Shown: piece after piece, positions 1-64,000 of the stretch | Layout: the number at the start of each line of letters is the position of its first letter | How positions within the stretch are numbered: position 1 is the first letter of the stretch | IMG/VR virus record: IMGVR_UViG_3300032227_001172 | Span: 32,001-96,000 of that record | DNA from: a virus | Taxonomy: Duplodnaviria; Caudoviricetes | Length of the DNA stretch: 64,000 nucleotides | Reading direction: 5' to 3' (one strand) | Position numbers and translations under genes: made by a program | The notes under the pieces: generated by a model | What the model was told of the DNA's origin: nothing | Databases searched by the model: none | The model's input: the letters and a program-made list of their open reading frames with translations, nothing else

Positions 1-1
1 T

Positions 2-220
2 AAAAAAGATTTTGCTCCTATGAATTGTAAATATGGTGAATTTATACAATGGGATGGTCCTAATTTATTGCATGGTAATTATATTAATCAAACAGGATCT
101 ACTAGAATCAGCGTGGATTTTAGAGTTATAGAATACAATAACTATATTCCTAGCGATAAAGGATCCATTAATGCGAACAAAAAATTTAAATTAGGAGAAT
201 ATTACGATCTATATGATTAG
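2..220 (+). CDS. C-terminal part of a 2OG-Fe(II) dioxygenase (StrG-like), 5'-truncated by the window edge
   Basis: Frame is open from nt 2 (KKDFAPMNCKYGEF...). Motif LHGNxxNxTGxTRISVDFRV matches the distal His and RxS of double-stranded beta-helix oxygenases. Confidence 0.65.
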   Translation, partial: KKDFAPMNCKYGEFIQWDGPNLLHGNYINQTGSTRISVDFRVIEYNNYIPSDKGSINANKKFKLGEYYDLYD

Positions 221-2822: not shown

Positions 2823-2832
2823 ATATTAAAGT

Positions 2833-3318
2833 ATGATTATAAATAATACCTATATAAGTGAATGTGTTTGGCTAAAACCTGAACAATATAAAGACAATAG
2901 GGGTATATTTTCAGAAATTTTTCAACAATCTAAAATTCCATATTTTAAACCATTGCAAAGTAACTATAGTTTTTCTCTATCTGGTGTGTTAAGAGGAATA
3001 CATAGAACACCATATGCCAAATTGGTAACATGCGTTAGTGGCAAAGTGTATGATGTTTGTGTAGATTTAAGAAAAGATAGTCCAACTTATCAGAACTATT
3101 TTGGTTTATTGTTAGATTCTCAAAATTTATATAGTTTATATATACCGCCATATTGTGGACATGGATTTTTAGCTATAGAAGACAGTACATTGATTTATCA
3201 ACAAGGAGATGAATATCAGTCATCATTAGACGAAACATATTGTTATAAACAATTTAATATCAATTGGCCATTTTTACCAAATATTATCTCATCTAAAGAT
3301 TCTAAAGCGTGTGACTAA
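2833..3318 (+). CDS. rmlC: dTDP-4-dehydrorhamnose 3,5-epimerase (RmlC/RfbC)
   Basis: DNRGIFSE, QSNYSFS..GVLRGIH, KLVTC..GKVYDVCVDLRKDSPTY, LYIPPYCGHGF, ISSKD. Confidence 0.93.
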   Translation: MIINNTYISECVWLKPEQYKDNRGIFSEIFQQSKIPYFKPLQSNYSFSLSGVLRGIHRTPYAKLVTCVSGKVYDVCVDLRKDSPTYQNYFGLLLDSQNLYSLYIPPYCGHGFLAIEDSTLIYQQGDEYQSSLDETYCYKQFNINWPFLPNIISSKDSKACD

Positions 3319-3321
3319 TTC

Positions 3322-5070: not shown

Positions 5071-5094
5071 AGAAACAAGTGAACATTGGATGTG

Positions 5095-29375: not shown

Positions 29376-30083
29376 ATGGTTAAGAAATCTGCAGAATCAA
29401 ATACGCCACCAGAAACTATTGTTACACCTAATGATTTAGGATGGACAGATTATGTTTTGAGTTTATTGTCTGATGATGAAAAAATAGCTGGTAATCCCAC
29501 CACAGACGGATTAAGAAGAGTATTTGAAATAGCAATGAATTGTGTGGTAATAGATTCTTCATCAAATGTTGTACAAACTCCAGATCCACAAAACGAGAAA
29601 AGAGCCACGGTTGTTCACAGTATCTCGTATGTATTAAAAAACATTGATCCGAACCTAGAAGAATTAAAATATAGGTCTGTGAGCGGCTCTGCGGATGTTT
29701 ATTGGGGAAACTGCGACAAAGCATTTCGTAATCATCCTGTCGCTGTAGCAGAAACCAGAGCAGAAGGAAGAGCACTCAGAAGAGGGCTAAAACTCAGAAA
29801 AGTGGTAGCAGCTGAAGAAATAGCAGCAGTTTTGGAAGATGATCCTGATGGTAATAATGTTTCCAAAATTAGTTCTAATCAGATTAATTTTATTGATGTA
29901 TTAGCACAAAGACTTAATATTAATGTGTTAAAGCTTGTAAATACACTTGACATTTCATTTGATACTGTATATAATATTACGCATGAAGATGCTATTAAGG
30001 TTATACGACATCTTAACGTATATCAGCAAGACACATCTTCTATCGCAGAAAATATTATGGGGTATCAACCAGAATGGAAATAA
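29376..30083 (+). CDS. Rad52/Sak-like single-strand annealing protein
   Basis: DGLRR, VAVAETRAEGRALRRGL motif, helical C-terminal tail (ISSNQINFI..L...A.KVI..LN). Confidence 0.6.
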   Translation: MVKKSAESNTPPETIVTPNDLGWTDYVLSLLSDDEKIAGNPTTDGLRRVFEIAMNCVVIDSSSNVVQTPDPQNEKRATVVHSISYVLKNIDPNLEELKYRSVSGSADVYWGNCDKAFRNHPVAVAETRAEGRALRRGLKLRKVVAAEEIAAVLEDDPDGNNVSKISSNQINFIDVLAQRLNINVLKLVNTLDISFDTVYNITHEDAIKVIRHLNVYQQDTSSIAENIMGYQPEWK

Positions 30084-30086
30084 ATT

Positions 30087-30419
30087 ATGAAAGTTAAATA
30101 CAAGCCAAATTCACGTTTAGAGTTTGAATTAGAAGGTGCTGGTCAAAAAGAAATATTTAAGGAATTAGCCACAGTACAAGAGATCTTCTCTGAAGATAAA
30201 TGTGGAGTATGTAAAAAGGACAATATTAAGTTTGTTGTTAGAAGTGTTGACGGCAACGACTACTATGAGATGAGATGCTTGTCTTGTGGTGCTGCTTTAG
30301 CATTTGGACAACATAAAAAAGGTGGCACTTTATTTCCAAAGCGTAGAGACGAAAACAATAATTGGTTAGACAATAACGGTTGGTACAAATGGAACAAAAA
30401 TCAAGAATCTTCAGACTGA
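30087..30419 (+). CDS. Zinc-ribbon hypothetical protein
   Basis: CGVC...YYEMRCLSCGA. Confidence 0.7.
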   Translation: MKVKYKPNSRLEFELEGAGQKEIFKELATVQEIFSEDKCGVCKKDNIKFVVRSVDGNDYYEMRCLSCGAALAFGQHKKGGTLFPKRRDENNNWLDNNGWYKWNKNQESSD

Positions 30420-31432
30420 TAGAAAATATTGTTATTATTGGCTATGATAATGGTTGTTGGCATAGCTTAATTTTTCATACCATATTATTACTAGTAATGG
30501 CTTTGATAGTGGAAATCCCTCCACCAATACATAAGCCTATTGTTTTAACAATCACATCTCATAATACCGAGGATGCATTAAGTATGGATCCTCCTTCTAT
30601 GTCCGTAGCATTTGATGACACTATAGATCAATCCGATGACGGTGCTTCTATGTTGGATCAAGTAGCTTATATTGATACGGCACCAGATATAGTTGACAAT
30701 ATAGATCTTCCAATTTTAGAAGAATATACTTCTTCTCAAACACAGGAGACTATAAATACAAAAGATCTAATGGAAAAGATTGGGAGAAATACAGACACAG
30801 AGCAATATGAACAAGACATTAAAAAGCCTTCATCTATTCCTATTCCGACAACACCAAAGATTAAAGTCAAAACAAATACTGGTGCTATAGCAAAACGTAG
30901 CCAACAGACCACCAATTCAACCAACACCGATAACCCACTGCGTCAACTAATAGCAGATGGTACATCAATAGGCGATGGTATACCACGAGAGGTTCTAAGT
31001 AATGGAGATGGACAAAATACCGGTGATATAGATGGTCGCCTTAAAATGTATGGAGCCAAAACAGGAGATATTCAAATATCTTTAATATGGAATACTGTTG
31101 ATGATATAGACTTACATGTTAATTATTCTAATAGATCAAGCAACGAAACTATTTTTTGGAGATATAGATTAGGCCGTAGTGGTGGGATGCTCGATATTGA
31201 TATGAATGGTAGTGGTCCACAGTCCAATAAGCCCATAGAAAATATTTTTTGGCCCAATAATGCAGCACCATCTGGACAATACACAATTGGGGTACATTTT
31301 TTTAGGTCATGGTCACAAAATAAGACTGTGCCAGTAATAATAAGAGTGCAGACTCTTAAGGGTGTTACTTTCCATAATGCTATAGTTAGATTGGGTAGTC
31401 CTTTAACTATAGTAACAACTTTTTCTAATTAA
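30380..31432 (+). CDS. Membrane-anchored protein with C-terminal YfaP/DUF2135-like domain
   Basis: TM segment SLIFHTILLLVMALIV, acidic/Pro/Thr linker, GDIQISLIWN..DDIDLHV, GGMLDIDMN, ENIFWP..APSGQY.IGVHFF. Confidence 0.7.
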   Translation: MVQMEQKSRIFRLIENIVIIGYDNGCWHSLIFHTILLLVMALIVEIPPPIHKPIVLTITSHNTEDALSMDPPSMSVAFDDTIDQSDDGASMLDQVAYIDTAPDIVDNIDLPILEEYTSSQTQETINTKDLMEKIGRNTDTEQYEQDIKKPSSIPIPTTPKIKVKTNTGAIAKRSQQTTNSTNTDNPLRQLIADGTSIGDGIPREVLSNGDGQNTGDIDGRLKMYGAKTGDIQISLIWNTVDDIDLHVNYSNRSSNETIFWRYRLGRSGGMLDIDMNGSGPQSNKPIENIFWPNNAAPSGQYTIGVHFFRSWSQNKTVPVIIRVQTLKGVTFHNAIVRLGSPLTIVTTFSN

Positions 31433-31877
31433 TAGGTCCCCATCTGCCATCAGGACAATTAGCATGTTTATTTGCTAATTTATTCTTGTAGTTTTTTTCT
31501 CTAACAATATGACATCCACACAACATACAAGCGTCGTCTTTATAGTAGTTACATTGTTTACAAATGCTTAATCTTTTTTCTATATCTTGTTGTGAACACA
31601 AACCATCGAGATGATCGTCTGCTTTAGGCTTATGAGACTCATCAATAACATTACTCATAATCTTAGTAATATCATTATTATTATTTACTATCTGTGCATT
31701 TTTTAAAACTTCTGGCTTGCCATTAGAAACTTCTTGTGTAAAAAGACTAGTCGCATATGGAAAACATAGAATTTTAGCTTCTGGATTTTCCAAAGATAGA
31801 ATTAATCCACAATTATTACACTTATAAATCTTTTTATTTTTAAAGATTTCGCCTGTTTCTTGGAATTCACAATACAT
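31425..31877 (-). CDS. Cys-rich small protein (DUF6171-like C-terminus)
   Basis: RLSICKQC...CMLCGC...KL....ANCP..RW; N-terminal CNNC. Confidence 0.7.
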   Translation of the reverse strand: MYCEFQETGEIFKNKKIYKCNNCGLILSLENPEAKILCFPYATSLFTQEVSNGKPEVLKNAQIVNNNNDITKIMSNVIDESHKPKADDHLDGLCSQQDIEKRLSICKQCNYYKDDACMLCGCHIVREKNYKNKLANKHANCPDGRWGPIN

Positions 31878-34800
31878 TATTGCCAGATCTCATTATTTAA
31901 ACGACTTAAAAAGTTATAACTATTTCTTATATCTTGAGCACTCCAACATATCCAATCTCTGCTATCACAAATTGTTTGCTTGTCTGCTGTTCCAGCCACA
32001 GTATTATAACAACCTATAGATGATTCGCAAGCTCCTTTATTATAAAATGGAGATGTTCTGATATATGTATTTGGTAATCCTATAAAAGAAAAATAACCAA
32101 AATAACTAGTAACTCCTACTTTATAACTATCTGGGAAAGGATTAAATGTACAAGGAGCGATAGAGTTATTAGTTTTAACAGTTGGACTTACAAATGGTGT
32201 TGGAGCAATTTCTATAACAGTATCACTAGTAGATGGATCAAAGGTTCCTGTCTGAGAACTTTGTGTGGTTGCCGTAGTTCTATACTTATATTTGATATAA
32301 TGAACATCATAATATATAGTCATATTCTCAAAAGCGACACCACCATCAGCACGAGCTTGTGCTTTAGTAACATCTCTACTACTAGAATATTTATGTAAAG
32401 TACAACTTCCTGGGATAACCCCTTCAAAAATATCATCATCGGCTATTTCAGGTTGTACTTGACATTCGTGCATTGGTCCACTATATGCCGATATAGAGGA
32501 ATTGGTAGCATATGTTCTATCAAACATTCGCTTAATATTGTTTTCAAAAACTTTAGCTTGGGCTTCTGCTGTTGGTCCATGAGCAGATAAGCTAAAATCG
32601 AACGGATCACACTCTACAACAGTAACCTTTCCACCATAATTATTACCCCAATAATAGTGGTGGTTACCCCCCCAAACTAATACAACGGGATTTTGACAAA
32701 CTTTCCACGGAGCACCACTTCCATCACATAAGCTACTCAAATAACCATTATTGGCATAACAAGGAGGTAAACCTCTACCAAAATCATCACAACAGTCTCC
32801 TTGTCTAACTCCTGTAGTAACAATATATTTATTGCCACCATTTACATTAGCATAGCTGAAAGTTCCCACAACACAAACTGCAGTAAAATCTTGCGTGGTA
32901 TAATTGACTCTCTGAGAATCTATTAATATATCAGCATCATTCTGACAATTTGCATTACACGAAGAATTAATATTTTCTGATACAGAGTATTTTTGATTAC
33001 TGAAACTAACAAAAATTTCTGGACAATTATTTCCTATATCTAGAGGGACGCAATAACTTTTAGTTGTGACAGACTGTATTATCTGACCATTTTGGCTCAT
33101 AATCGCCTTAGAAGATGATACATATAAAGTTATTTGACCATTATTATAAGAGACCGATAGTATATCTACTGGGCATGGAGACGGAGTATAGGGAGCCACA
33201 TCTTTAGTAATAGTTCTTACATAAACTTTGCGTATTACTTGACGACCAGACTGTATAGAAACACCATCGCATCCCGGCGGCATTGTCGCCGAAAAACACA
33301 TTGTTGGCATACATCCAGATACAACATTTAGTGGTTCTGATAAAGGACAACTTTCTCCAGGAGCAGGATAGGTCACAGGATTACCATAACGGTCTCTTCT
33401 AGGATCATCTCCATGTAGACCACCACTATCTGGCGGAGGTTGATCAGGATTACTAATAATTGGAGTATTATCAGTAATAACATAACGATATCTATAGGAA
33501 TGACCATACAGAGTAAATTTATAAGAACAATCTTCGAATTCATATGTGAAATTTGGTGAACCAAAAGCATAATCAACACCCTCAAATTTATCACAAGTCT
33601 CACAACCTTCTTGAGTATCGTCCACTCTACAATAACCAAATGTAAAAGGATCATTAGGTTGTGTTCCTGGATGACATGGAGGATTCGAGATAACTGGTCG
33701 TACTACTCTAAACCAATCCATACCTACTCCAACCGTGCGAGTAGTAGTATCTGGATTAGTATTAACTGGCGTAGTTATAATGCCGTCGTCGGTTTTTCCT
33801 GTTGTTGTTGCAACAAGTTCTATAGTTTCTTGATCATTACTTGACTCAGGAGGGTCCGGAATATCATCATCAGTAAAATACTGTTGAGAAATTAAACTTT
33901 TTTGTTTATAAATACCTTGATATAAAATTGTACTAACTGTCTTATTTCCAATATTACCTTCTAACAATAAGCTATTAGTGGTGGTATCAAAAGCCATAGA
34001 TAAAGTAATATTTACATTACCAATAGTCATTACAATACCATCGCCTATTTCTTTAGTACCTCTAACATTTAAAGAACCAGCAACAGTCAGATTTGTATTG
34101 GCGTTTTTATCATAATTATATAGGATTTCATCGTAAATATTTCTCGGCTTTACTTCTGGATCAGAATAATTTAATAAATCATTTTTACTTAATGCTTTTT
34201 TATCTATAAATAATTGTTGTTTATTAATTACTTGTTTTTCACCATATAATATTCTAAACAACATTTCATTTGCATGTATGTCCATATTCTGAACATTAAT
34301 ACTGTGTGTTGTTGTGTTTCGATTTTCTTCTATAAAATCTTGATAAGAAGATAAAAATATTCTACTTTTGTGAGAAGGAATTGGAGTTGAAGAAGAACAG
34401 TCAATACTATTATTAATTGGATTATTAGCAGGTAGTTCGGTTCTAGTTATTGTAATATAATTATTATTTCCTAAAGTATTATATAATCCAGCATCATAGC
34501 TTAAATATCCTTCCACACTATCGTTTAGATCATCGAAAGTAATAGTTTTTGGTTTGCCTATAGCAAATTGAGATACTAAATCAATAGATCCAGCAGACCT
34601 AAAAATACATGAAGCTTTGACATTTTCTCTACTATATTGTGGTTGTTGACCACATTTATCCGGATTATCCATATCCGCATATACGGCTTGTCTATAAAAA
34701 GCATTAGATCTTTTTATTTTTTGAGTTATAAAATGTGAATCTGGAGTAATAGTATTAATATATGGATTCATATTATTTGGTTTAAATAATACTCTAGCAT

Positions 34801-53359: not shown

Positions 53360-56300
53360 TTAGATATCTATCGTACCGCCACCAAAATTAGGAGGTTCAA
53401 CACCTTCTAAATTATTAGCAACCCAATCCTTCATTGATGCATCAATATTCGCCATAATTACGCCTTGAATAGCTGGTTGTAGTGCTGCAAATAGCTGTGC
53501 TCCTGTAATATCTACTGTTATTCTAGCTGGTTGCATTGCCAAATTAATTTGTTGTGGTATATTAATACGCTGTAATTCTTTGATCAAATTACCAAATTGC
53601 AAGACAAAACCAGCTACTCCATTATTTACACCATTGGCATTATTACCTCCAGCTGCTGCAGGACCCATTGCTGGTTGCTGAAAGCCTTGTAATATAGTAC
53701 CAAATTGTACCAATGTTTGATTAACACCAGTAAGTAAAGTGCCAAATATTGTAAGTTGTTGATTAATATTGCCAAATGATTCAGGATTAAATGCTGCTTG
53801 GGATGCTTGGTTTACCCTATTGGCTAATACCATTTGTGCTTGTGGTTGCATTACAACAGGTCTTGGTGTCAGCATTTGCTGTTGTTGAGCTTGTTGAGCT
53901 TGTTGAGCTCGTTGAACTTCATCGATACGTCTTTCTCTGGGATTTCTATGTTGACCTCTCCTGACGAAAATACCATCGCTTGCATATACTATTCCTCCAT
54001 TTTGATAATAACCATCATTTATAGCGCGTAACACAGGAAGATGTCGTTGTGTAGCTTGACGATTAACAACAAATTCGCCGGGAGTTAGCATTGCGGGTAC
54101 TGTGTCGGTACCACGAGGCTGATAGTTTACTAATGTTCCTGTTGATGCATATATAGCTCCACCATGGCTTCTATAGTTTAACTTTGGTGGAGATGGAGGA
54201 AGTGGCGGTGGAGTCATTTTTACGCCTTCTCCACCCTTAGTTTCCATAAATCTTACTAAACTTTTAGATAGTTCTCTGGTTTGTTCATCTGTACCAGGGA
54301 AATCCTGGAAATTAGACGTAAGAAATTCTTGGCTCCCAGAATTTTCTGCAATATCTAAGTAGTTCTGAGAAGTAAAACCCCTATCCTTGCTAAGTCTTGT
54401 TATAGCATCCAAAACTCGATCATGAGCCGTTAAAGTTTTTGGACCCCTTACTCCAACCTCTGCCATGATATCAGGTTGTATAAGAGACGCATCTTCCCTT
54501 CCAAATGCTAGTCCTGCGTTTCCATAACTACCACCAGATCGACCACGAGTATAATTATCAGCCTCAGATCTTAATGTCGAATTGATCCTATCTTTATCGA
54601 TCACTACACCCATATTAATTAATGCATCATCTACTAGAGACATAAAACCATCTTCTCCCAACTCTGTTCTCATCTGTTCTATAGATCTCTTTTTATAATA
54701 GTCTGCGGTTCCTTCTAATATATCATTAACTCCATATCCCATATGGTTTCTTGGAGTTGCCATTTCATGATATTGAGAAGTTGTTCTTTTGAGGACTGAA
54801 TCGGCTACTTGATCTCTGTTGTTCTCCATCCAAACTTTTAATAGTTTTCCAGTAGGATCCTTCATTGTCTGATAATGATGAGCAGCCTCATGAGCCACTG
54901 TGCCAATCATCTGTTCTGGGGTAATCTTAGGAGATATTCTACTCAAACCTCCCTGATAATCGCCGAGAGCTCCAGGAACAGGTTCTGTAAATCTTGTTGT
55001 TAATGAATCAAATGTTTTAGGATCTGCTCCAGAATAATGAATACTTTCAGCCAAGTTGTCTCTGGCTTTATATACTAACTGATCAACACTTATTGGACCG
55101 TCAACATAGCGACCTCCAAATCCTTTCATTCCTACAAACGGAGTAATCGCTTCTGATATGGGTCTATTTAATGCTTTTTCAGCATATCTTATCTGTTTTG
55201 GTGTTAATCCTCCGGGACCAACCATTGAATCTCCAACCCTTGTTGGTGTGGGTATAGAAGGCAAAGCTAACGATAGTAACCCTCCTGTTGCAACATCTCC
55301 TGCTGTTGATCCTGCCATTGCTGATACGGGATTTTCATCCATTAGTTGATTAGCTATAGCGTTAGGCTTTGGAGCTCCCGTATTTAATGCTGTTTCTTGC
55401 ACCAACGATCCTACTCCAGCTCCAGTAATACCTCCAATCAAGCCTCCCGCAATAATTCCAGGAGGTCCTAATGGAGCAAGGGCAGCTGCCGCTATTATAG
55501 CACCAGAAGTAGCCCCCATTTGAGGAACAAAAGACTTAGCAGCTCCGGCAGCAAAAGCTGCTCTGCTACGCATGGCCGCATATTCTGGATGATTAAAAGA
55601 TGTTTCTGGTAAAAGTTTAAATTCATTTGCTGAAATTTCTCTGCCATTTTGATCCAAATAGGTTTTAGATCCACCACTCTGTGATATGTGCGGAATACCC
55701 ATTCGCTTTAAACTTCTAGAATACTCACTATCTCTTATAACAGAATTTTTATCGTGAACTCCTTCTTTAAAAGATCCTGATTGAACAGTTGGTGTTGGTA
55801 GTTTTGGTCTTGATGGATCAAATCCATCTTGAGCATAAACCACACCGCCCTTACTCAATACAATAGCTGCTCTAGCATAAAACTGATTATATAAACTATC
55901 TACATATTCTTGAGATAATAAACTTTTATTTTTTAAAGATTCTATAGTATCATAATAATGTTGTATTCCTGTTTGTATATCTAGGACACGCTCATTCTCA
56001 GGAACTGTTTTAACTCCACCTATAAATTCTGACCAGTTCGTTGGTGGTTTTACTTTTTTATTATCAATTAATGGTTTAAGTGTGCTACGCATAGCACCAA
56101 ACCTAACATCCATTTCTCTAGCTTTATAAAAATAATCAATCTCGTCTTCTGTTAAAGATCCGTCTTTTTGTAATGCATTATATAAAGGCTGCAGATATTG
56201 ATTTGTACTAATTGATGTTCTGTTATCTTTTGTTACAGCAGGGCTTGTGGTGTGTCTCTGTAAGTAATGTCTAAGTTCATGAGCTACTATAGCCCACCAT

Positions 56301-59300
56301 TCTTTATATTCTTGAGGATCCAATCTATTATTTTGGTTACCAACTCTGTTATCTTGATCAAAGGTTTGCCAAGGGGCGACAAAAACATTTTGTGGTCCAT
56401 TATCTTTTCCTATATTTTCTCCAAGTAAGCCTCCGCCAATAAGTTTGACATTAACAGGAACTTTTTTATCTAAAAGTTTATTTATAGGTGTTTTTTGACC
56501 ACCTAGTGATTGTAAGGCAGGAAATACTGATTCTGATTGCGGACCATTACCCATTTCTCTATTAGCCTGAATATTATCAGTATCCATATTTTGTCCAGAA
56601 CGCTCCATCGCATCTCTCAGCCTTGTTATTGTTCTATTGCCGATTTCCATTCCTTCTGTTGATATGTTTTGTTGTATTCTTTGTGCTTGTTGTGTTTGTT
56701 TTGTCGATCTTGACGCTGATTCGACTTGAACTCCATTTTGAGCATAAACTACACCGCCATTATTATAATAACCATCATTAATAGCATGGAGTAATGGTAA
56801 ATGTTTTTGTGTAGCCGCCCTATTAATTACAAATTCTCCTGGTGTTAACATGGCGGGAACAGTGTCTGTGCCTTTTGGTTGGTAATTAACCAGTGTGCCA
56901 TCGGCAGCATAAACCATACCCCCACGATACATTCCCATCGGTTGTCCAGGTTGTGGACCTTGGGGAGGTGCTGGTATTGGTTGTCCGGGCAATTGTGGTA
57001 TTACGCCACCTATTTGAGCAGCTATAGCTTGAATAGCATTATTCATCACAACACCAAAATCATCTAATACGTTCAAAATCTTGTCTGACGCTATAGCTTG
57101 AGCTTCACAGCATTGTTTTAGCATAGCAATAGTATAATCTAGTTTTTCTTGACTAGTAATATTATTTTGAGGAACTGCCTGAGTATTAGTTTGAATATTA
57201 TCTTTATTAATATATCCTAGTTTAGTACTTTCTTTAGCGTTCATCAAAACTTCATCGATACGTTTATCTGGAGCTGGTTCTATTTGTACTCCATCAACAT
57301 ATTTAGTTGGATCAGTAGTCATACTTGCGCCTCCGACACCACCATCCGCTAGATACTCTATTTTACCACCCCTGCTGCGATTGATACTTTGTAATAATGG
57401 TAAATGTTTTTGTGTTGCTGCTCTATTAACAACAAACTCTCCTGGCGTTAACATTGCTGGCACAGTATCTGTTCCTTGTGGCTGATATGGAACCAACATA
57501 CCAGTACTAGCATATATAATTCCGCCCCTACTCTTTGTTGCTACTTTATTAGATACTCTAATAGCTTCATTTTGTGTTTGTTGGGCAGGATATAAAAAGC
57601 CAGCTACATTTCCACCTCCCAGAGCATTCAGTCTTGCGATATTAAAGTCATTATTAGCTCGTGGATCAATAAGTCCTTGTTTTGCTGCTCTAGTATATAA
57701 ATTAGCTTGTGCCATTTTTTTCTGGCCAGGATTCAGCTTATCAAATCTTGATACTAATTTTTCGAATACTCCAATTTGTTTGGATGATCTAACGAAGGTG
57801 CTTTCAAACTGTTTGGTAATTTCTTTACGTTCTGCTGGAGAGGCCGAACTAATAATCTGTTGTAGTCTAGGATCATTCTCAACATTTTTGGATAAATTAT
57901 TTTGTTGTACTCTTAATGCTGCTACCACTTGAGAAGCTTTTGGACTTAGTGGCGCATTTTGAAGCATAGAGCTATATATTGATACTAATTCTTGTGAATT
58001 AAAAGGATTATATACGGCATCTATCATGTCTGGTGGTATACCAAGAGTTCCTAGAGCTTCTGGAGTTCTAGCACCGAATGGGAAATCTTTTTGTAGTTTT
58101 TTCTGTAGATTTTTTCTCCATGTTAAAAATACGCCAGGATTAGAAAATTTATCTGGAATAGGCATATTCATATACTTAGCAGTAGCACGTATCTGATCTC
58201 CTTGCTGTTTAGCTAATTTATCATTAGCTTTCTTTTCTTCTCTTTGCTGTGCTTTAGCTTGTACTAGTTGTCCAGATTTATATTGATCCCAAAGTTTTTG
58301 ACGACCCTCGGTATCTAGTTGATCATATTTTTTATCTTTATATTCTTGATTTATATTTTGATTGACTGTATTTAATTGACCATATAATGTATCTAGTCTA
58401 GCATTTTTTTCTTTTTCCCATTTGAGTTCATCACCAGCAAATGAATTATTTGGATCATATCTAGAAGCTTTTTCTTCTTGGATTTGCCTATATAATTCTT
58501 CACGGTCTGTGACAGACTTTTGGAATTCTGGACTAAACGCATTTGGTGGTAAACGCTTTATCCATGGAATAACACGGTTAGTGCTTTCGCTGGTTTCACG
58601 ATAAGACCCAAACTTTTGTTGTAAAAGTCTTTGTTCTGGAGTTAATGGCTTATCTAAACCAAAACCATCTAAAGACATTCTATTAGGATCAGTTGCATAA
58701 ATAGCATCGTCAATTCTACCTCTTTCTGCATCTATATTAGCTTGTCTTTGCATCTTAGCGTTTTGAGCAGCCTCAGCTTTCTCAAGATCTTCATTTGTGG
58801 CCCATTCCCTTAAACCAACAGCTTTTTTACGTTCAGTAAGTTTTGTTCTTTCACTCCATTGTTTATCAAAAAGAGCATCTGCATCTGCTTGTTCTCTAGC
58901 TTGTTGGTCAGCTTTTTGCACGGCGGCATCTTTATCCTCTGCTGCCATCTGACTTCTAGCCTCACTAGTTCGTCTTTGATAAGATGCTTCTTTTTGAATT
59001 TCTTCATTCAAAGTAGCATCATCAAATGTAGAACTGTTGAAGAATGATCCGGTTCTAACGAATAACTGTTCTTCATTTCTTGTGGCGCTAGCTCTTTTTT
59101 GATCTTGGTAAGCTTGAGCTTTACGAGCTTCTAAATCTGCAACTAGTCTATCTCCTGCTTGAGTACGAGGTTTTGCTTTTAAATCCTCAATTTTATTCTG
59201 CAATTTAGCTTGTTGTTCAATAAATAAAATCTCAGCAACAGATCGTCCTTCATAAGTTTCTCTTCCTCCGGCTCTTCTGGCAACTTCGGCTTCTCTGCTA

Positions 59301-62300
59301 TCTTCTAGATTAGATCTACCAGCATTTTCCATTCTGCGAGTAGTTTCTCTGCTAGTAGATAAGTTTTGTCTATCATTATAAAGACCAGTAGTTTCTCTTC
59401 CTACTGAACCTACAATTTGTGCACCTCCAGCGATCGAAGCCCCGATTAAAGCTCCAGGAGGACCAAAAACTCGTCCAGCTATTGCTCCTTCGCCTATGGC
59501 AAAACCGAACTCTGTTAAATTACCAGCAGCAAGGTCTGTATAGCCACCCCGCTCAACACCTAAAGCACCACCAATCATACTCCTTTCTGCTCCAACATCT
59601 CCTCCACCACTAACACTTCCAGTTAAAGCTCCTGTAATACCTCCTCCTTCATAAGCAACATACGCTCTTTGTGCTAATGTTAATATTGGACCTAGTACAC
59701 TAAAAGTCTTTCCTAAAAATTCTCTAGTAGCAGGACTAGTGGCGAGTTTAAATAAATCTAACTTTAATAAATTTGGTATATTCATTCCTTTAAGTTTTGG
59801 AATTTTTTCACCGATATAACTTAACAAATTTGAAAGACTTTGAAAATATTTCTCAGCAATAAAACCTTTAGCTGCATTTCCACCGGTTTGTACCGCAGAC
59901 CCACCCTTTTTACCGGCATTAAATAATACCTGAGTTTGAGCATCTATATCTGCTAATAAAGCCGTCGGATCAAGACCACCAGCAGCATAAACCACACCGC
60001 CACGACTAAATGTTTTACTATTTCCAGCACTACCATTAATAGCACTTAATAATCCTAAATTATTTTTAGTAGCTTGAGCATTAACTACAAATTCTCCAGG
60101 ACTTAACATAGCAGGGATAGTATCAGTACCTCGTGGCTGGTAATTTACATATGTTCCATCACTAGCATATACGATACCTCCACCAGATAATCTTTGAGTA
60201 TTAGTAGCTTGACCCGGAGTTCCTACTCCAAAACCAGCACCACGTAATTGTTCGGTGTCAAATTTTACTCTAACTTCACTTAATGCTTTTATAAATGTTT
60301 GATTAGCACTATCTAATATGTCTTTTTGTTTAGCTAATATTCCTTCATTTAGTGCTTGTGTGCTTGTAGCAAGTTCTGCTTGTTGTGCTTTTAACATTCC
60401 TTGTAAAGCTTGGATTTCTGGACTTTGTTCTGGAGGCTGTCTTAGTAACTCAATCATTTTTTGGAACATAGGATTATTCTGAAGTCCCATTCCTTGAGCT
60501 TTAGCAAAATTCTCTAATAAATCAGCTCTCATATTATTAATTTGTGGTCCCTCTAGACCACTCATTTGAGATAACTGATTAAACAACCCTAAAGCGCTCT
60601 TAGTTTGTCCAGCAAAAGCCTGTTGAGCAGCGGCGTATGCTTCTTGTTGTGTTGATCCATTTTGTAGCGCCTGAAAATAAGCTTGTTGAGCAGCTTGAGA
60701 CTGATTGATGGTTGTAATTTGACCATTCAATGTATTATTAAGTAAATTAAATGTGGAATTTAATTCTCCTAATTCTTGCGGGGTGCTTCCTACTAGTTGT
60801 TCGGCAAATGATCCTGCTGCTTGTTGGCGACCACTTAATTCTTGTTGTATTCTACCAATTTCGCCGATAATATCATTAATATTTCCTTCGATAGCTCCGG
60901 GTAAACTTTCTAATCCTTGTTCTGTTGCTTTTAGGGCGCTCTCAGTTTCTGCTAATTTTTTAGTCAGCGCTGTGAATCTAGCGTCTGCTTTAGGAATAGT
61001 AGAATCAAAAGTATTAGCAGTATTTTGTAAAGCTGATCTGATAGCATTTACTTCTTTTTGTAATGTATCTTTACGAGAAGCTAAATCTGTAGCATTTAAT
61101 TGTTCGGGAGCTACGCCAGCTCTAGTAGCGGCGACATTTCTTCTAGATTGAAGTCTTTCTCCTATGCCGACTCTTTGACCCAAAGCTTCTTTTAATGCTA
61201 TATTAGATTGTGTTAGGGTGTTTTGATAATTTGCTTGATTTTCTCTTAGATTTTGTTGTAGTTTACCATATTCATTAGCAGCATTGGCCGCAAAATTCAT
61301 AGCCTCTTGTACAAGCTTTAAACTATTCTGTAAAGCTTCAAAAGCTTGCTTGCTTGCTTGTAATTGATTGCTTAAGCCAGATTCTTCCAATAGTTTTTGA
61401 ATATCTATTTCCTCGCCACGTTTTAAAGATTCTTCAATTTTATCTTTAAATTCATTTCTCAATCTATCCCCAAGATCATTTCTGCCAAATACAGCATCTA
61501 TTTTTTGTGTTAATTGATTTATAATATTTGTTGCTACTACGGCCTGATTAGCTCCTGTTTGTTGTGCTCTAGCGGCTCCACCAGCCACGATATCTTCTGC
61601 GTCTAAACTGAATCTAGCTAATTGTTCAATAAATCCTCGATCTCTACCAGCAAATTGAGATGCTTGACCGATAGCAGTATTTTGTTGTTCTCTACCAAAT
61701 GCTCTTGGATTTTGTAAAACATTTAAAGCATCAAGATTCGCAGTAAATCCAGTTGCTCCAGATACTATTTTTTGCAAATCATCACTGGCCTGTTTTAAAC
61801 TTGCTGATGACGCATTGATGGCCTGATTAAGATTATCAAAAGTTCTTGTCATACTAGCAGATACTACATTTATTTTTTGCGTAAGCTTTTGTGCAGCTTT
61901 AGCTCTAGCAGAATCGGCAAATTCAGCATTAGCTAATGTTCTGGCTTGATCAACATATTTTCGTTTAACTCCTTGAATAGCTCTTTCCTTTAGTTGCTCT
62001 GCCATATTAGATTTTTGTATGGTAGTTACTTCTGCTTGGTATTCAGGATTAGCTTCTGCGATAGCCGTATATAAATCCGATAAAGCAACTCCTTGTTGTT
62101 GTAAAATATTAGTTACTTGATCGTAACTTTTACCCGCAGCAATCATACTACTAATTAAAGCTTGAGCCTCTTGCGCTGCTGCTTGTTGCTCCGCTGTTCT
62201 TGCTCCAGAAATTTCCGCTGATGATCTTTTATCTCCTCCTAAGTAACCAAAAGTAGCTGTGCTCAATGCTCTACTAACCATTCCTGGTTGTTCAGCCTTA

Positions 62301-64000
62301 AGATTGGAAGCCATCCGTTTTTCTTCTAAGGCTTGAATTTTTTGAAAATTAGTAACTAATGTTCCAGCATCTTCGGATCGTCCAGTTTTAACAAATCTTT
62401 CTCTCACTTGGGCAGATTGTTCTACTGCTTTATCTAGTTGTATGGTGGCTAGTTCAGATTCTTTTTGGGCTACAGCGGATGCGAATCCATCCACAGCAGC
62501 AACAGCGCCGACTAATGCTCCCGCAATAGCCCCAATGCCACCAAACTGAGCACCTATAGATGTGTATGTTGAAAAAGCAGTGGCTCCTCCAGCAATACCA
62601 GCACCCGTAGTTCCTCCGATACTGTCTCCAATTTGTTGTGCCAGCATTGGACCAGTGAAAGCTAAAGCCGTACCTAAATTAGATAAATTTAAACCTCCTG
62701 TTCTTCCGCCTCCACCAGCCATGTCTCCGTCATCCTGTGCTTGAGCAGAATTATTCTGTGCTGTAGTTAGTTGTTGTGTAGATGTATTAAGTTGCTGTTG
62801 TGATTGAGCGGTTTGCTTTACCTTTTGTATCAGTCCACCCCAAGCCTGTGACACTCTTTGTTCCGCAGCTGCTCTTGCATCTGCAACAGAAACACTATTG
62901 TTAGTAGCTCGAATTTGTCTTGTTAATGCATTAACTTGCTGCCTTTGCTGTTGATACACGAGTTCTGCGGCTCTCTGGTCTCCTGTCTCTGCTGCTTGTT
63001 TAGCACCAAACAACACTTGAGATTCAGGCAAAACCCTACCAGATGCTTCAGCATATGCATCATCAAAAGACATAGTAGGATTAGCTTTTGCTATTTGGCT
63101 TACCACTTTTGCCATCATGTTTTCAACTGCTTGTTCTAATGCTTTAGCTGCGTCTTCTCCAACTCTAGATGCAGTAGACGAGAATTCAAAAACATCTCCA
63201 CCATTATTAAATTTCTGTACTCCAACTCTTCCTCCTCTATTGAAACCAAGAGCTTTTGTTGCCTTGGCACGTAGGATAAAACTGCCTTCTGGCAAGCTGG
63301 TGCGAATACTATCGCTCGTACCGCTACCTGGACCTTTAAATACGCTAATACCACCCTTACTAAACCGTCCCATACCATTACGATCAGCCTGATTCATACG
63401 TTTTAAGTTACCATAGCCAATGCTCTTAGCTGTTTTGGGTGGCACATAGGCTTCGCCATTACTAACTAGAGCAGGTACAGATCCTCCGTCAGCAAACTGC
63501 TGAACATCAGCCCATAGGTTATGTCTACCCATCAAGTCTACATATTTAGCTTTATCTACTCTGAATCTAGAACGAGGAGAAAGGATAAATTCATTTTCTT
63601 CACTAGGCTGTTTCATGAAGAATGTTTCCATCTGGCCTGTTCTTGGATTGATATCTTTTTTAGTTACATTAATTTTACGATCTTTAAATTGTTCAGCGAC
63701 ATCTACTCCTTGACCATTTTTCTTAGTCCTAACAGTAAGCATAGCTGCCCAATTATCTTCAGATCTTGGGGCGTTATCTAAAAAAGATTTAGCAACTGCA
63801 TAATTTTTACTCGTAGAAACAAAACCTGGAAGACTAAAGGCTTTACCAACAATTTTAGCTACTTCTTGAGCATAGTAGGTTTGTCTATTATTATATTTTG
63901 TATCTTTTGGAATATCTGGACTTTTATTTAAACCAGTATCCATAGCAAATTTATCAAAGGCATTACGAGATAATGAACTATATAGTTCCTCTGGTGCTGG
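53360..64000 (-). CDS. Tape-measure-like polyvalent protein (>3,540 aa, 5'-truncated) carrying ADP-ribosyltransferase, two HExxH metallopeptidase domains, glycine-zipper TM hairpins and repeated GG-flanked spacers
   Basis: Frame is open to nt 64000 (PAPEELYSSLSRNAFDKFAMDTG...). About 1000-aa Ala/Gln-rich helical region; GPGSGTSDSI and PAML.PGEFVVN motifs typical of tape-measure proteins; lies upstream of the tail-tip genes. Confidence 0.8.
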   Translation of the reverse strand, partial: PAPEELYSSLSRNAFDKFAMDTGLNKSPDIPKDTKYNNRQTYYAQEVAKIVGKAFSLPGFVSTSKNYAVAKSFLDNAPRSEDNWAAMLTVRTKKNGQGVDVAEQFKDRKINVTKKDINPRTGQMETFFMKQPSEENEFILSPRSRFRVDKAKYVDLMGRHNLWADVQQFADGGSVPALVSNGEAYVPPKTAKSIGYGNLKRMNQADRNGMGRFSKGGISVFKGPGSGTSDSIRTSLPEGSFILRAKATKALGFNRGGRVGVQKFNNGGDVFEFSSTASRVGEDAAKALEQAVENMMAKVVSQIAKANPTMSFDDAYAEASGRVLPESQVLFGAKQAAETGDQRAAELVYQQQRQQVNALTRQIRATNNSVSVADARAAAEQRVSQAWGGLIQKVKQTAQSQQQLNTSTQQLTTAQNNSAQAQDDGDMAGGGGRTGGLNLSNLGTALAFTGPMLAQQIGDSIGGTTGAGIAGGATAFSTYTSIGAQFGGIGAIAGALVGAVAAVDGFASAVAQKESELATIQLDKAVEQSAQVRERFVKTGRSEDAGTLVTNFQKIQALEEKRMASNLKAEQPGMVSRALSTATFGYLGGDKRSSAEISGARTAEQQAAAQEAQALISSMIAAGKSYDQVTNILQQQGVALSDLYTAIAEANPEYQAEVTTIQKSNMAEQLKERAIQGVKRKYVDQARTLANAEFADSARAKAAQKLTQKINVVSASMTRTFDNLNQAINASSASLKQASDDLQKIVSGATGFTANLDALNVLQNPRAFGREQQNTAIGQASQFAGRDRGFIEQLARFSLDAEDIVAGGAARAQQTGANQAVVATNIINQLTQKIDAVFGRNDLGDRLRNEFKDKIEESLKRGEEIDIQKLLEESGLSNQLQASKQAFEALQNSLKLVQEAMNFAANAANEYGKLQQNLRENQANYQNTLTQSNIALKEALGQRVGIGERLQSRRNVAATRAGVAPEQLNATDLASRKDTLQKEVNAIRSALQNTANTFDSTIPKADARFTALTKKLAETESALKATEQGLESLPGAIEGNINDIIGEIGRIQQELSGRQQAAGSFAEQLVGSTPQELGELNSTFNLLNNTLNGQITTINQSQAAQQAYFQALQNGSTQQEAYAAAQQAFAGQTKSALGLFNQLSQMSGLEGPQINNMRADLLENFAKAQGMGLQNNPMFQKMIELLRQPPEQSPEIQALQGMLKAQQAELATSTQALNEGILAKQKDILDSANQTFIKALSEVRVKFDTEQLRGAGFGVGTPGQATNTQRLSGGGIVYASDGTYVNYQPRGTDTIPAMLSPGEFVVNAQATKNNLGLLSAINGSAGNSKTFSRGGVVYAAGGLDPTALLADIDAQTQVLFNAGKKGGSAVQTGGNAAKGFIAEKYFQSLSNLLSYIGEKIPKLKGMNIPNLLKLDLFKLATSPATREFLGKTFSVLGPILTLAQRAYVAYEGGGITGALTGSVSGGGDVGAERSMIGGALGVERGGYTDLAAGNLTEFGFAIGEGAIAGRVFGPPGALIGASIAGGAQIVGSVGRETTGLYNDRQNLSTSRETTRRMENAGRSNLEDSREAEVARRAGGRETYEGRSVAEILFIEQQAKLQNKIEDLKAKPRTQAGDRLVADLEARKAQAYQDQKRASATRNEEQLFVRTGSFFNSSTFDDATLNEEIQKEASYQRRTSEARSQMAAEDKDAAVQKADQQAREQADADALFDKQWSERTKLTERKKAVGLREWATNEDLEKAEAAQNAKMQRQANIDAERGRIDDAIYATDPNRMSLDGFGLDKPLTPEQRLLQQKFGSYRETSESTNRVIPWIKRLPPNAFSPEFQKSVTDREELYRQIQEEKASRYDPNNSFAGDELKWEKEKNARLDTLYGQLNTVNQNINQEYKDKKYDQLDTEGRQKLWDQYKSGQLVQAKAQQREEKKANDKLAKQQGDQIRATAKYMNMPIPDKFSNPGVFLTWRKNLQKKLQKDFPFGARTPEALGTLGIPPDMIDAVYNPFNSQELVSIYSSMLQNAPLSPKASQVVAALRVQQNNLSKNVENDPRLQQIISSASPAERKEITKQFESTFVRSSKQIGVFEKLVSRFDKLNPGQKKMAQANLYTRAAKQGLIDPRANNDFNIARLNALGGGNVAGFLYPAQQTQNEAIRVSNKVATKSRGGIIYASTGMLVPYQPQGTDTVPAMLTPGEFVVNRAATQKHLPLLQSINRSRGGKIEYLADGGVGGASMTTDPTKYVDGVQIEPAPDKRIDEVLMNAKESTKLGYINKDNIQTNTQAVPQNNITSQEKLDYTIAMLKQCCEAQAIASDKILNVLDDFGVVMNNAIQAIAAQIGGVIPQLPGQPIPAPPQGPQPGQPMGMYRGGMVYAADGTLVNYQPKGTDTVPAMLTPGEFVINRAATQKHLPLLHAINDGYYNNGGVVYAQNGVQVESASRSTKQTQQAQRIQQNISTEGMEIGNRTITRLRDAMERSGQNMDTDNIQANREMGNGPQSESVFPALQSLGGQKTPINKLLDKKVPVNVKLIGGGLLGENIGKDNGPQNVFVAPWQTFDQDNRVGNQNNRLDPQEYKEWWAIVAHELRHYLQRHTTSPAVTKDNRTSISTNQYLQPLYNALQKDGSLTEDEIDYFYKAREMDVRFGAMRSTLKPLIDNKKVKPPTNWSEFIGGVKTVPENERVLDIQTGIQHYYDTIESLKNKSLLSQEYVDSLYNQFYARAAIVLSKGGVVYAQDGFDPSRPKLPTPTVQSGSFKEGVHDKNSVIRDSEYSRSLKRMGIPHISQSGGSKTYLDQNGREISANEFKLLPETSFNHPEYAAMRSRAAFAAGAAKSFVPQMGATSGAIIAAAALAPLGPPGIIAGGLIGGITGAGVGSLVQETALNTGAPKPNAIANQLMDENPVSAMAGSTAGDVATGGLLSLALPSIPTPTRVGDSMVGPGGLTPKQIRYAEKALNRPISEAITPFVGMKGFGGRYVDGPISVDQLVYKARDNLAESIHYSGADPKTFDSLTTRFTEPVPGALGDYQGGLSRISPKITPEQMIGTVAHEAAHHYQTMKDPTGKLLKVWMENNRDQVADSVLKRTTSQYHEMATPRNHMGYGVNDILEGTADYYKKRSIEQMRTELGEDGFMSLVDDALINMGVVIDKDRINSTLRSEADNYTRGRSGGSYGNAGLAFGREDASLIQPDIMAEVGVRGPKTLTAHDRVLDAITRLSKDRGFTSQNYLDIAENSGSQEFLTSNFQDFPGTDEQTRELSKSLVRFMETKGGEGVKMTPPPLPPSPPKLNYRSHGGAIYASTGTLVNYQPRGTDTVPAMLTPGEFVVNRQATQRHLPVLRAINDGYYQNGGIVYASDGIFVRRGQHRNPRERRIDEVQRAQQAQQAQQQQMLTPRPVVMQPQAQMVLANRVNQASQAAFNPESFGNINQQLTIFGTLLTGVNQTLVQFGTILQGFQQPAMGPAAAGGNNANGVNNGVAGFVLQFGNLIKELQRINIPQQINLAMQPARITVDITGAQLFAALQPAIQGVIMANIDASMKDWVANNLEGVEPPNFGGGTIDI
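53882..53908. repeat. 9-bp tandem repeat x3 (TTGTTGAGC), encoding AQQ AQQ AQQ
   Basis: Seen directly in the sequence. Confidence 0.8.
53972..54175 (-). repeat. Intragenic spacer repeat, copy 5
   Basis: YRSHGGAIYASTGTLVNYQPRGTDTVPAMLTPGEFVVNRQATQRHLPVLRAINDGYYQNGGIVYASDG. Confidence 0.9.
55823..55858 (-). repeat. Partial spacer repeat (GG-VYAxxG end only)
   Basis: LSKGGVVYAQDG. Confidence 0.75.
56732..56932 (-). repeat. Intragenic spacer repeat, copy 4
   Basis: MYRGGMVYAADGTLVNYQPKGTDTVPAMLTPGEFVINRAATQKHLPLLHAINDGYYNNGGVVYAQNG. Confidence 0.9.
57338..57535 (-). repeat. Intragenic spacer repeat, copy 3
   Basis: KSRGGIIYASTGMLVPYQPQGTDTVPAMLTPGEFVVNRAATQKHLPLLQSINRSRGGKIEYLADGG. Confidence 0.9.
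59975..60190 (-). repeat. Intragenic spacer repeat, copy 2
   Basis: LSGGGIVYASDGTYVNYQPRGTDTIPAMLSPGEFVVNAQATKNNLGLLSAING...FSRGGVVYAAGG. Confidence 0.9.
63197..63496 (-). repeat. Intragenic spacer repeat, copy 1 (degenerate, doubled)
   Basis: FADGGSVPALVSNGEAYV...FSKGG...GPGSGTSDSIRTSLPEGSFILRAKAT...FNRGG...FNNGG. Confidence 0.75.

Follow-up and report, generated by a model that had tools for sequence, protein, structure and literature searches.

What does a phage gene encode when one short peptide recurs along its product and the segments between the copies are unrelated to each other? This question is raised by an open reading frame at positions 53360..64000, on the minus strand, of the 64,000-nt stretch of viral DNA analysed here (the window). 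A sequence-only reading of the frame had described it as a tape-measure-like polyprotein, in which spacers of one type separate candidate effector cassettes that may be cleaved apart and injected.

Identity and extent of the gene

The frame runs out of the window. It represents the C-terminal 3,546 codons and the stop codon of a gene that passes the window edge by 4,596 nt; the complete gene (genome 100596..85360, minus strand) encodes a protein of 5,078 aa. The repeats described in the sequence-only reading are real, but they had been seen in a partial protein, whose remaining 1,532 N-terminal residues contain the tape-measure domain, a fifth intact spacer, three lone GG boxes and three cassettes. 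The Pfam matches reported below were obtained with segments cut out of the protein, the undivided 3,546-aa window product giving no match in this database.

The interpretation of the product as a tape measure is confirmed by the N-terminal part beyond the window, where the PhageMin_Tail domain (PF10145) was found at aa 192-383 (E 4.3e-22; 79 bits vs a cut-off of 33), and by the presence of a tail-tube gene upstream: a 365-aa ORF (genome 102984-104078, minus strand) is assigned to tail-tube clusters with a feature score of 0.97 and TM values of 0.76-0.91. Two ORFs of 97 and 182 aa, placed just upstream of the gene, occupy the position of the chaperone genes. The gene is therefore located in a tail module, 3' of the tail-tube and chaperone-position genes, and its relatives carry the annotation of TP901-family tape measure proteins (TMPs). 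On the evidence of its sequence, the protein is the TMP of a long-tailed phage with a genome of ~230-231 kb. Members of this phage family probably infect Bacteroidota. Phage_sheath_1 was not found in the genome, and both a siphovirus and a myovirus are still compatible with the data. Comparison with PHROGs gave only two matches for ten upstream ORFs, a fibre-like one and another without known function, and a single match, of unknown function, for seven downstream ORFs, with none for the downstream giant ORFs; when seven pieces of the downstream region and three ORFs upstream were searched against Pfam, a sub-threshold beta-roll match was the only result.

The spacer (~65 aa) consists of a GG box, a core (D-T-V-P-A-M-L-T-P-G-E-F-V-(I/V)-N...L..IN) and a second GG box. 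Besides its five intact spacers, the whole protein has one degenerate copy that is doubled and about five GG boxes that stand alone (Table 1), and no second spacer-bearing ORF is present in the 230-kb genome. All copy positions given previously check out, and both of the Pro-rich linkers were found; the estimate of about 20 GG motifs holds for the whole protein (22-23) but is too high for the part within the window (~14-15). The motif is far above chance level, since each intact copy scores 79-87 bits with the spacer HMM, and 18 GG boxes were observed at PSSM scores of at least 10 bits vs 0.37 expected in shuffles.

Table 1. Cores, cassettes, spacers and lone GG boxes of the giant TMP, in order from the N terminus
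Feature	Position in window (nt)	Residues (aa)	Strand	Remarks
Core c0, PhageMin_Tail		1-520	minus	PF10145; universal in relatives
Intact spacer		524-588	minus	beyond window
Lone GG boxes		839, 1034, 1475	minus	N-terminal part, beyond window
Cassette D, C3/VIP2-type ADP-ribosyltransferase	63518..64000	1492-1693	minus	Pfam ADPrib_exo_Tox
Doubled degenerate spacer	63191..63499	1700-1802	minus	spacer HMM
Core c1	60203..63169	1810-2798	minus	one of only two segments common to all relatives
Intact spacer	59990..60187	2804-2869	minus	HMM 80.6 bits
Cassette F	57554..59971	2876-3681	minus	hydrophobic Gly-rich stretch, then charged region
Intact spacer	57335..57535	3688-3754	minus	HMM 86.8 bits
Cassette G, function unknown	56948..57316	3761-3883	minus	between two spacers; Pro-rich linker at end
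Intact spacer	56747..56929	3890-3950	minus	HMM 81.4 bits
Cassette H, HELRH motif	55859..56728	3957-4246	minus	putative peptidase, motif only
Lone GG box LSKGGVVYAQDGF	~55811..55861	~4246-4262	minus	GG-box PSSM; end-only copy of the sequence-only reading
Cassette I+J	54188..55810	4263-4803	minus	Gly-zipper hairpin and HEAAH domain, Pro-rich end
Intact spacer, last	53987..54169	4810-4870	minus	spacer HMM
C-terminal cap	53363..53968	4877-5078	minus	after last spacer

Not all copies are equivalent. The second half of the doubled spacer carries GSF instead of GEF; in relatives, this spacer is conserved at 61-69% identity and immediately precedes the helical core. The last spacer has the same position as the lone spacer of lambda gpH and of other ordinary tape measures. 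The lone box LSKGGVVYAQDGF is a hybrid of the N-side and C-side boxes of spacers and thus represents a recombination scar. Between copies, synonymous codons of the invariant spacer core differ at 83 of 143 sites (71 expected), and the longest exact DNA match among spacer copies is 8-21 nt. Since synonymous sites are randomised while the residues are invariant, the spacer is conserved as a peptide and not as DNA; the idea that it provides a homology anchor within the gene is weak at the DNA level.

The element delimits independently folding, exchangeable cassettes

Accessory cassettes occupy two slots in the protein, one between c0 and c1 and the other after c1, and each of them is flanked by the ~65-aa element or by no more than its GG half-box. 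Core c1 itself, which is rich in Ala, Gln and Leu and includes a Gly-rich hydrophobic stretch at aa ~1990-2045, is presumably the helical ruler segment. Of the recognisable cassettes, two are ADP-ribosyltransferases, one of them ART-PolyVal-like and the other C3-like, and one is a HAD-family phosphatase; the others include hydrophobic hairpins (the Gly-zipper hairpin of cassette I+J spans aa 4356-4401), two HExxH-bearing domains and several unknowns. The predicted ART domain was borne out in cassette D (its first 41 residues lie beyond the window), where ADPrib_exo_Tox matches with 29.6 bits, above the cut-off of 23.4, and aligned relatives retain both its STS and its ExE motif. Another cassette shows a weak match to ART-PolyVal. 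The HAD cassette spans aa 1043-1471; a fold search with it retrieved HAD hydrolases, with AphA as the best match, and its DxDxT, K and DD residues are invariant.

The remaining cassettes are far less informative. Apart from EF-hand, two families of ARTs and a weak match to SHD1, nothing was detected by Pfam searches with 123 cassette representatives and the extra cassettes of a close relative (P0152). Cassette F has no family match, and weak homologs of it occur in 3 of 108 relative loci. The two cassettes that had been called HExxH peptidases possess the bare motif only: for both, matches in Pfam and among PDB sequences (phmmer) are absent, cassette H gave nothing in the ESM Atlas or in a search for near-length homologs, and homologs are present in 0 (cassette H) and 1 of the 108 relative loci, P0152 having a copy of cassette H with ~94% identity. 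The label "effector" is justified for no more than three or four cassettes, and most have no Pfam family; since most also have no recognisable function, applying the term to all of them is an extrapolation.

We identified 943 giant homologs of metagenomic origin, about 2,000-7,900 aa in length and with 2-12 spacers each. Among them, complete ORFs of 1,958-7,794 aa have 2-11 spacers, and protein length and spacer copy number are correlated (r = 0.74). The two cores are the only universal segments, and elsewhere in the 27 proteins used for this count we distinguished 102 sub-cassette families. The content between spacers is highly variable, and not invariant, in the relatives. HSP endpoints fall inside a boundary element in 38% of cases vs 10% at random, and spacers and GG boxes do mark real borders between modules, as the sequence-only reading had assumed.

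That cassettes are swapped, as also proposed there, is shown by several observations. Some cassettes are more similar than the cores of the same pair of proteins: identity to the relative L028 is 59% for the core and 76% for cassette I+J, and identity to L019 is 65% for the core and 75% for the HAD cassette. The ART-PolyVal cassette occupies a different slot in a third relative (L036). In P0152, the flanks are 98% and 94% identical, and whole cassettes are replaced or inserted, with the four junctions (located in the protein sequence) inside GG boxes; at the lone box LSKGGVVYAQDGF this relative has a full spacer and ~780 extra residues. Cassettes therefore move between slots and between phages, and comparison of the proteins shows that in-frame recombination at GG boxes adds, deletes and replaces them.

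Structure prediction agrees with this modular organisation. In the model of the HAD cassette, pLDDT exceeds 90 in the core and is below 50 in the GG-box flanks; the flanks of this modelled cassette are low-confidence linkers and do not belong to its fold. The AF2 model of an isolated spacer (pLDDT 60) has a predicted two-helix core, at a low confidence that makes it unfit for a fold search. Taken together, the comparisons and the model show that the element delimits independently folding, exchangeable cassettes.

The element in other phages and the cleavage of tape measures

A single motif of this type had been said to be common near the C-termini of tape measures, and a search with the spacer profile found it to be widespread, with matches in 30,167 cluster representatives. 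Among PDB sequences, profile A1 matched lambda gpH at residues 732-785 (E 9.9e-5). Gp16 of mycobacteriophage Douge has two spacer matches (E 5e-10), and gp17, the TMP of Gordonia phage Zirinka, has four spacers with an SLT lysin domain between two of them; both resemble the giant TMP in having several spacers per protein. In the actinobacteriophage TMPs there are 2-4 copies in ~1,700-2,150 aa and the cargo consists of wall hydrolases, whereas the giant relatives reach 12 copies and 7,872 aa, with a cargo that includes ARTs and the HAD phosphatase. As these profile matches show, the element is a peptide motif that is conserved across TMPs generally. The spacer is not represented in Pfam, and full-text literature searches retrieved no description of the motif, of TMP autoproteolysis, of TMP polyproteins or of polyvalent TMPs. 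T5 pb2 is matched by the GG-box PSSM only, and not by the spacer HMM; its sole GG box lies at G1130, the chance of a box within 1120-1150 being 6e-4.

To our knowledge, maturation cleavage of a TMP is known only for lambda gpH and T5 pb2. The cut that converts gpH into gpH* has been estimated, to within about 20 residues, at aa ~691-730, in a "glycine-rich region" (PMC12617516). The site in pb2 is disputed, having been placed after R1127 (PMC10038345) or alternatively at V1148 (PMC11937520), and both of these positions are within 20 aa of G1130. This suggests that the two cuts map to the N edge of the element, at a site that is approximate in lambda and disputed in T5. The order of parts is also the same in gpH, pb2 and the giant TMP, i.e. 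a hydrophobic Gly-rich stretch, a GG box or spacer, and a hub-plugging C-terminal cap; in the giant TMP the cap is presumed, from its position only, to be a hub-plug end like gpHC and pb2C. Lambda and T5 differ in having a single element and a single cut, whereas in the giant TMP unrelated cassettes are set between seven spacer copies and about five lone boxes.

Since the same motif is found at the lambda and T5 cuts, the giant TMP may be an effector-delivering polyprotein, and by analogy it is reasonable to infer cleavage at its multiplied spacers. On balance, we consider it somewhat more likely than not that a TMP has been expanded here into a modular carrier of cassettes, with the element as a putative maturation site that gives rise to a polyprotein. 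The element would act as it appears to do when gpH is converted into gpH* and gpHC, and pb2 into pb2* and pb2C, and its multiplication would turn the TMP into a polyprotein. The tail lumen would hold the pieces until their expulsion before the DNA, so that enzymes and membrane modules would be released into the envelope or the cytoplasm. More tentatively, the element may be a general determinant of TMP maturation cleavage in long-tailed phages, whose multiplication would have created a polyprotein with a lumen-stored payload that is fired ahead of the DNA and reassorted through GG boxes; such a payload would comprise ADP-ribosyltransferases, a nucleotidase-like HAD phosphatase, membrane hairpins and unknowns.

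Candidates for the catalyst would be self-processing, which the element may perform, a conserved assembly-linked protease or a host protease. Sites within the lumen would be out of reach of an external protease, and multi-site cleavage would therefore need either self-processing or cleavage before assembly; we know of no precedent for either. A further point against the polyprotein is that, according to our volume estimate, three chains of 5,078 aa would occupy most of an ordinary tail lumen. Processing by the protein's own "zincins", as suggested in the sequence-only reading, is not supported: these putative peptidase cassettes are nearly absent from the relative loci, and both lambda gpH and the Zirinka TMP have spacers without a recognised zincin domain. 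The HExxH cassettes are thus unlikely to be the general catalyst.

It is also possible, if rather doubtful, that the TMP stays uncut at its internal spacers, and that the spacers are short linear motifs through which the chain docks to a tail component present in all tails (the tube lumen, an assembly chaperone or the hub), or which keep the TMP chains in register between bulky cassettes, with cassettes acting in a tethered form, like uncleaved polyvalent proteins such as N4 vRNAP. Some polyvalent proteins are indeed delivered uncleaved (PMC5512222). The spacer peptide is strongly conserved yet predicted to be flexible, a combination often seen in binding motifs. Like the tube, chaperone and hub, the spacer ranges from lambda to actinophages, and the part of gpH that contains it could not be resolved in virions of lambda. 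Docking does not readily explain why both phages with known TMP processing appear to have the cut at the element, or why lone GG boxes, which have no core, also mark cassette borders.

Two further roles can be considered. The spacers flank the lysin domains of the Zirinka TMP and precede the muralytic pb2C, and the two-helix core of the low-confidence model would suit an envelope-interaction element, e.g. a LysM-like peptidoglycan binder that is repeated so as to fix the TMP, together with its enzymes, to the wall after ejection. This is improbable, since enzymes of a cytoplasmic type (ARTs) are also flanked by spacers; the resemblance to LysM, a weak profile match to one LysM chain, was rejected, E 0.33 being not significant and Pfam LysM matching no copy. 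The whole chain might instead be a ruler for tails of 0.3-1.2 micrometres that scale with the TMP, in which the spacers are functionless relics of serial duplication. TMP length does vary fourfold, and according to tape-measure deletion work on mycobacteriophage TM4, motifs embedded in a TMP reportedly count in tail length. We consider this very unlikely: randomised synonymous sites combined with invariant residues point to selection on the peptide, the modelled HAD cassette is globular, the ART cassette matches a family of globular enzymes, and near-identical phages would differ by ~220 nm in tail length.

Comparison with other modular proteins and significance

The giant TMP combines several unrelated enzymatic domains (a weak ART-PolyVal-like match, ADPrib_exo_Tox and a HAD fold) with a feature of the polyprotein type, i.e. 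a conserved junction motif between distinct cassettes. In the first respect it resembles the polyvalent proteins, in which unrelated enzymatic domains are strung together in very variable architectures (PMC5512222). Those proteins are described as packaged in the head or transferred by conjugation, with no mention of the tape measure (Iyer et al. 2017, PMC5512222). Unlike the giant TMP, they have no conserved delimiter motif. The MPTase-PolyVal zincin was not detected in the giant TMP with Pfam or PDB, which revealed bare HExxH motifs only.

In polymorphic toxin loci, a conserved junction motif (VENN in CdiA, PxxxxDPxGL in Rhs) precedes swappable C-terminal toxins. These loci share with the giant TMP a short conserved peptide at the border of unrelated cassettes exchanged by recombination. 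Polymorphic toxins are bacterial and have one variable tip, whereas the giant TMP carries serial cassettes inside a structural protein of the virion.

The element at the lambda and T5 cuts provides a concrete, mutable candidate for the determinant of TMP cleavage. The tail lumen may hold a diverse and quickly exchanged set of enzymes. If the proposed polyprotein does exist, it would represent a route of early effector delivery distinct from that of head-packaged ejection proteins, and a cassette with its delimiter would be a natural scaffold for loading proteins into phage tails.

The tape measure gene, its spacers and its neighbourhood

The reading frame of Q, the protein under study, is open on the minus strand at window positions 53360-64000, and its start codon is absent within the window. 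The window comes from a viral record of 230,691 bp that is bounded by direct terminal repeats; in it, the complete ORF spans genome positions 100596-85360, giving a product of 5,078 aa. Residues 192-383 match PhageMin_Tail (PF10145; E 4e-22). Tail-tube clusters are matched, in features and in structure, by an ORF of 365 aa that lies a few genes upstream, and two small ORFs near the gene occupy the chaperone position. Database relatives, one of them from a Sphingobacteriia MAG, carry the name 'TP901 family phage tail tape measure protein'. Q is therefore a tape measure protein (TMP); its phage is a long-tailed jumbo phage that probably infects Bacteroidota.

The other ORFs of the tail module are almost without PHROGs or Pfam matches, and a search of the genome for a sheath domain found none. 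The six large ORFs downstream of the TMP gave zero PHROGs matches and, in Pfam, a single sub-threshold match of the 1527-aa protein to the beta-roll LbR_Ice_bind (29.4 bits vs 30); presumably they form a tail-tip and fibre module that is unrecognisable by sequence. Upstream of the tail tube lies a 1,102-aa ORF whose PHROG matches are strong (best 2.8e-65) and belong to virion structural, baseplate-wedge and fibre families; near its N-terminus, a short segment resembles a fibre-attachment region. Genes lie on the plus strand up to window position ~31.4 kb and on the minus strand beyond, and this switch (~30000-31900) coincides with the maximum of cumulative GC skew.

The sequence-only reading described a polyprotein divided by a ~65-aa spacer, in which a D-T-V-P-A-M-L-T-P-G-E-F-V core is flanked at both ends by short GG motifs (GG boxes). 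All of the copies that it listed were found in place, and the pattern continues beyond the window, where the PF10145 core, a fifth intact spacer, more GG boxes and three further cassettes are encoded. With a position matrix, 18 GG boxes of at least 10 bits were observed in Q, against 0.37 expected in shuffles, while a spacer HMM found zero matches in the remaining ORFs of the genome. The doubled spacer differs in its second half, where Ser replaces the Glu that is invariant in other copies (GSF, not GEF); an S-type copy occurs at the equivalent place in relatives and is one of the most conserved regions, with 61-69% identity compared with 28-30% for the adjacent core.

Segments of Q (cut at spacers and GG boxes) and neighbouring ORFs
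Feature	Residues of Q	Position	Strand	Remark
Gene part beyond window	first 1,532	genome 96001-100596 (L002:11001-15596)	minus	
N core	1-517			
Fifth intact spacer	524-588			beyond window
Cassette A	595-835			no assigned function
Lone GG boxes	839, 1034, 1475			beyond window
Cassette B	848-1030			weak ART-PolyVal match
Cassette C	1043-1471			HAD-type by modelled fold
Cassette D	1492-1693			ADPrib_exo_Tox, above Pfam cut-off
Doubled degenerate spacer	1700-1802	window 63191-63499		
Core c1	1810-2798			preceded by doubled spacer
Intact spacers in window	2804-2869, 3688-3754, 3890-3950, 4810-4870			
Cassettes F, G, H, I+J, then C cap				after c1, in this order
Cassette H				HELRH motif
Cassette I+J				hydrophobic hairpin, HEAAH motif
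Lone GG box (end-only copy)	near 4250			
Six large ORFs downstream		window 31877-53332	minus	1527, 580, 550, 1307, 533, 2631 aa
ORF upstream of tail tube		L003:5272-8577 (genome 106272-109577)	minus	1,102 aa

A modular architecture with exchangeable cassettes

The N core as a query matched more than 100 IMG/VR contigs, and 943 giant homologs of it are present in a collection of 5.8 billion proteins. The 35 complete relative genes (27 distinct) encode 1,958 to 7,794 aa with 2 to 11 spacers each, and among the top library hits protein length correlates with spacer copy number (r = 0.74). In the minimal arrangement, a single cassette between two spacers separates the N core from c1. The N core and c1 alone are common to 27/27 distinct proteins; the remaining segments fall into 100 further families, mostly occurring once. 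Invariant content between spacers, which would have counted against the proposal of interchangeable cassettes, is thus clearly not what the relatives show. EF-hand calcium-binding domains were seen in cassettes of the giant TMPs of several relatives (3/123 representatives), with precomputed PF13202/PF00036 annotations on several proteins, and SHD1 (PF03983) recurs in other relatives; the relatives concerned include L099, L091, L106, P0174, P0207 and P0205.

The ART domain recognised earlier corresponds to cassette D, whose STS and ExE motifs are kept in relatives. Cassette C was modelled from an alignment of 14 relatives (core pLDDT >90); the best PDB matches of the model are HAD-superfamily enzymes, with the acid phosphatases AphA and e(P4) first, and the cassette shows invariant DxDxT, Lys and DD motifs. 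Since the GG boxes beside this cassette have pLDDT <50, they are linkers outside the fold rather than integral parts of it. The two HExxH cassettes, putative peptidases by motif, had no sequence match in Pfam or PDB; for the first, neither the Atlas nor a search for near-length homologs yielded a lead.

A phage whose N core is only 59% identical, and whose c1 is hardly alignable with that of Q (26% over 160 aa), has a cassette 76% identical to I+J; the block in common begins precisely at (L/M)SKGGVVYAQ(D/E)G and extends as far as a Pro-rich linker and GG box. The HAD cassette has a 75% identical counterpart in a phage with a 65% identical core, and the ART-PolyVal cassette is located after c1 in another phage. 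The most clear-cut example is P0152, a close relative that is 1,464 aa longer and 98% identical to Q over residues 1-841 and 94% over Q 1032-4265, with cassette B replaced and identity ending and restarting inside the GG boxes at 839 and 1034. In place of the lone box near residue 4250, P0152 carries a full spacer and ~780 extra residues, followed by a box matching the right half of the lone box; the end-only copy is therefore a scar left when the N-side box of one spacer recombined in frame with the C-side box of a different spacer. When all pairs are taken together, boundary elements contain 38% of homology breakpoints, compared with 10% at random. The architecture is thus modular, and its cassettes are exchanged.

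As a mere stretch of DNA, the suggested homology anchor is insufficient to account for the motif, even though the GG boxes act as junctions. Exact DNA identity between spacer copies within the gene extends over merely 8-21 nt, and in the invariant core 83/143 same-residue codon pairs differ, compared with 71 expected under random codon choice. The spacer motif is therefore kept by selection on the peptide.

The spacer motif in other tape measures and its possible role

A profile built from 47 spacer copies matched 30,167 cluster representatives among 1.84 billion proteins (E <= 1e-3), of which the best 150 are all 1,360-7,872 aa long with 3-12 copies. In cultured phages, every match listed falls under an annotated tape measure gene, labelled 'endolysin' in four RefSeq copies of these records. 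Pfam contains no family covering the motif, and full-text literature searches found no description of it. Among PDB sequences, the profile matched lambda gpH at residues 732-785 (E 1e-4) and mycobacteriophage Douge gp16 at two places (E 5e-10), all in regions that the structures do not resolve. Bambus, a cultured jumbo phage, shows the ordinary arrangement of one copy near the C-terminus. The 2,146-aa TMP gp17 of Gordonia phage Zirinka (L114) has four copies (aa 952, 1236, 1627 and 1975), two of which enclose an SLT transglycosylase that ends just ahead of the third copy; this cultured actinophage is a ready experimental model in which to examine whether spacers are cut.

Cleavage is documented for two TMPs only, lambda gpH and T5 pb2. 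In the former, a C-terminal piece of ~14 kDa is lost 'from the glycine-rich region', leaving gpH* of approximately residues 1-710, with the boundary modelled as 691-730 (PMC12617516). Since the hydrophobic Gly-rich stretch (aa ~685-725) directly precedes FHFATGG...RGEFVF...YATGGYVG, the cut, at its estimated position, would lie at the N edge of the spacer element. T5 pb2 is reported to be cut after R1127 (PMC10038345) or, as cited in PMC11937520, after V1148 (FVPR/AEGGMMYPGVSYQMGEHGTEV/V, slashes marking the reported cuts); G1130 belongs to the sole GG box of this 1,219-aa protein, and the probability of a chance box within 1120-1150 is ~6e-4. In the C-terminus of T5 pb2 (L113:17125-17502), the 'metallopeptidase motif' of pb2C, MGEHGTEVV, lies ~10 residues past the GG box and by position might correspond to the spacer core PGEFVV, in which case that core would be one and the same element as the muralytic motif already published; the spacer HMM did not support this alignment.

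By analogy, the lambda and T5 cut positions lend genuine, though indirect, backing to the polyprotein reading of Q, in which internal copies would also be cleaved, and make a processed, injected payload plausible. The main rival holds that the chain stays uncleaved and that its spacers are docking points for a conserved partner in the tail. For cutting to occur deep inside a closed tube, the sites would have to be self-processing or be cleaved before assembly. The HExxH domains of Q are unlikely to be the general protease, because the two cassettes occur in 0 and 1, respectively, of 108 fetched loci of relatives, and because spacers are present in lambda gpH and Zirinka, where no zincin domain is recognised. 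By our own estimate, a tail of 200-250 nm would have most of its lumen filled by three 5,078-aa chains (~2,000 nm3). Were tail length set by every residue, tails would be 0.3-1.2 micrometres long, and near-identical phages would differ in tail length by ~220 nm. Most likely, the conserved cores would measure length and form the channel, the cassettes would be carried in the tail lumen and expelled first, and the spacers would act as processing sites. Compared with known TMPs, which have a single cleavage element or contain a lysin, the Q family represents an extreme variant of that plan.
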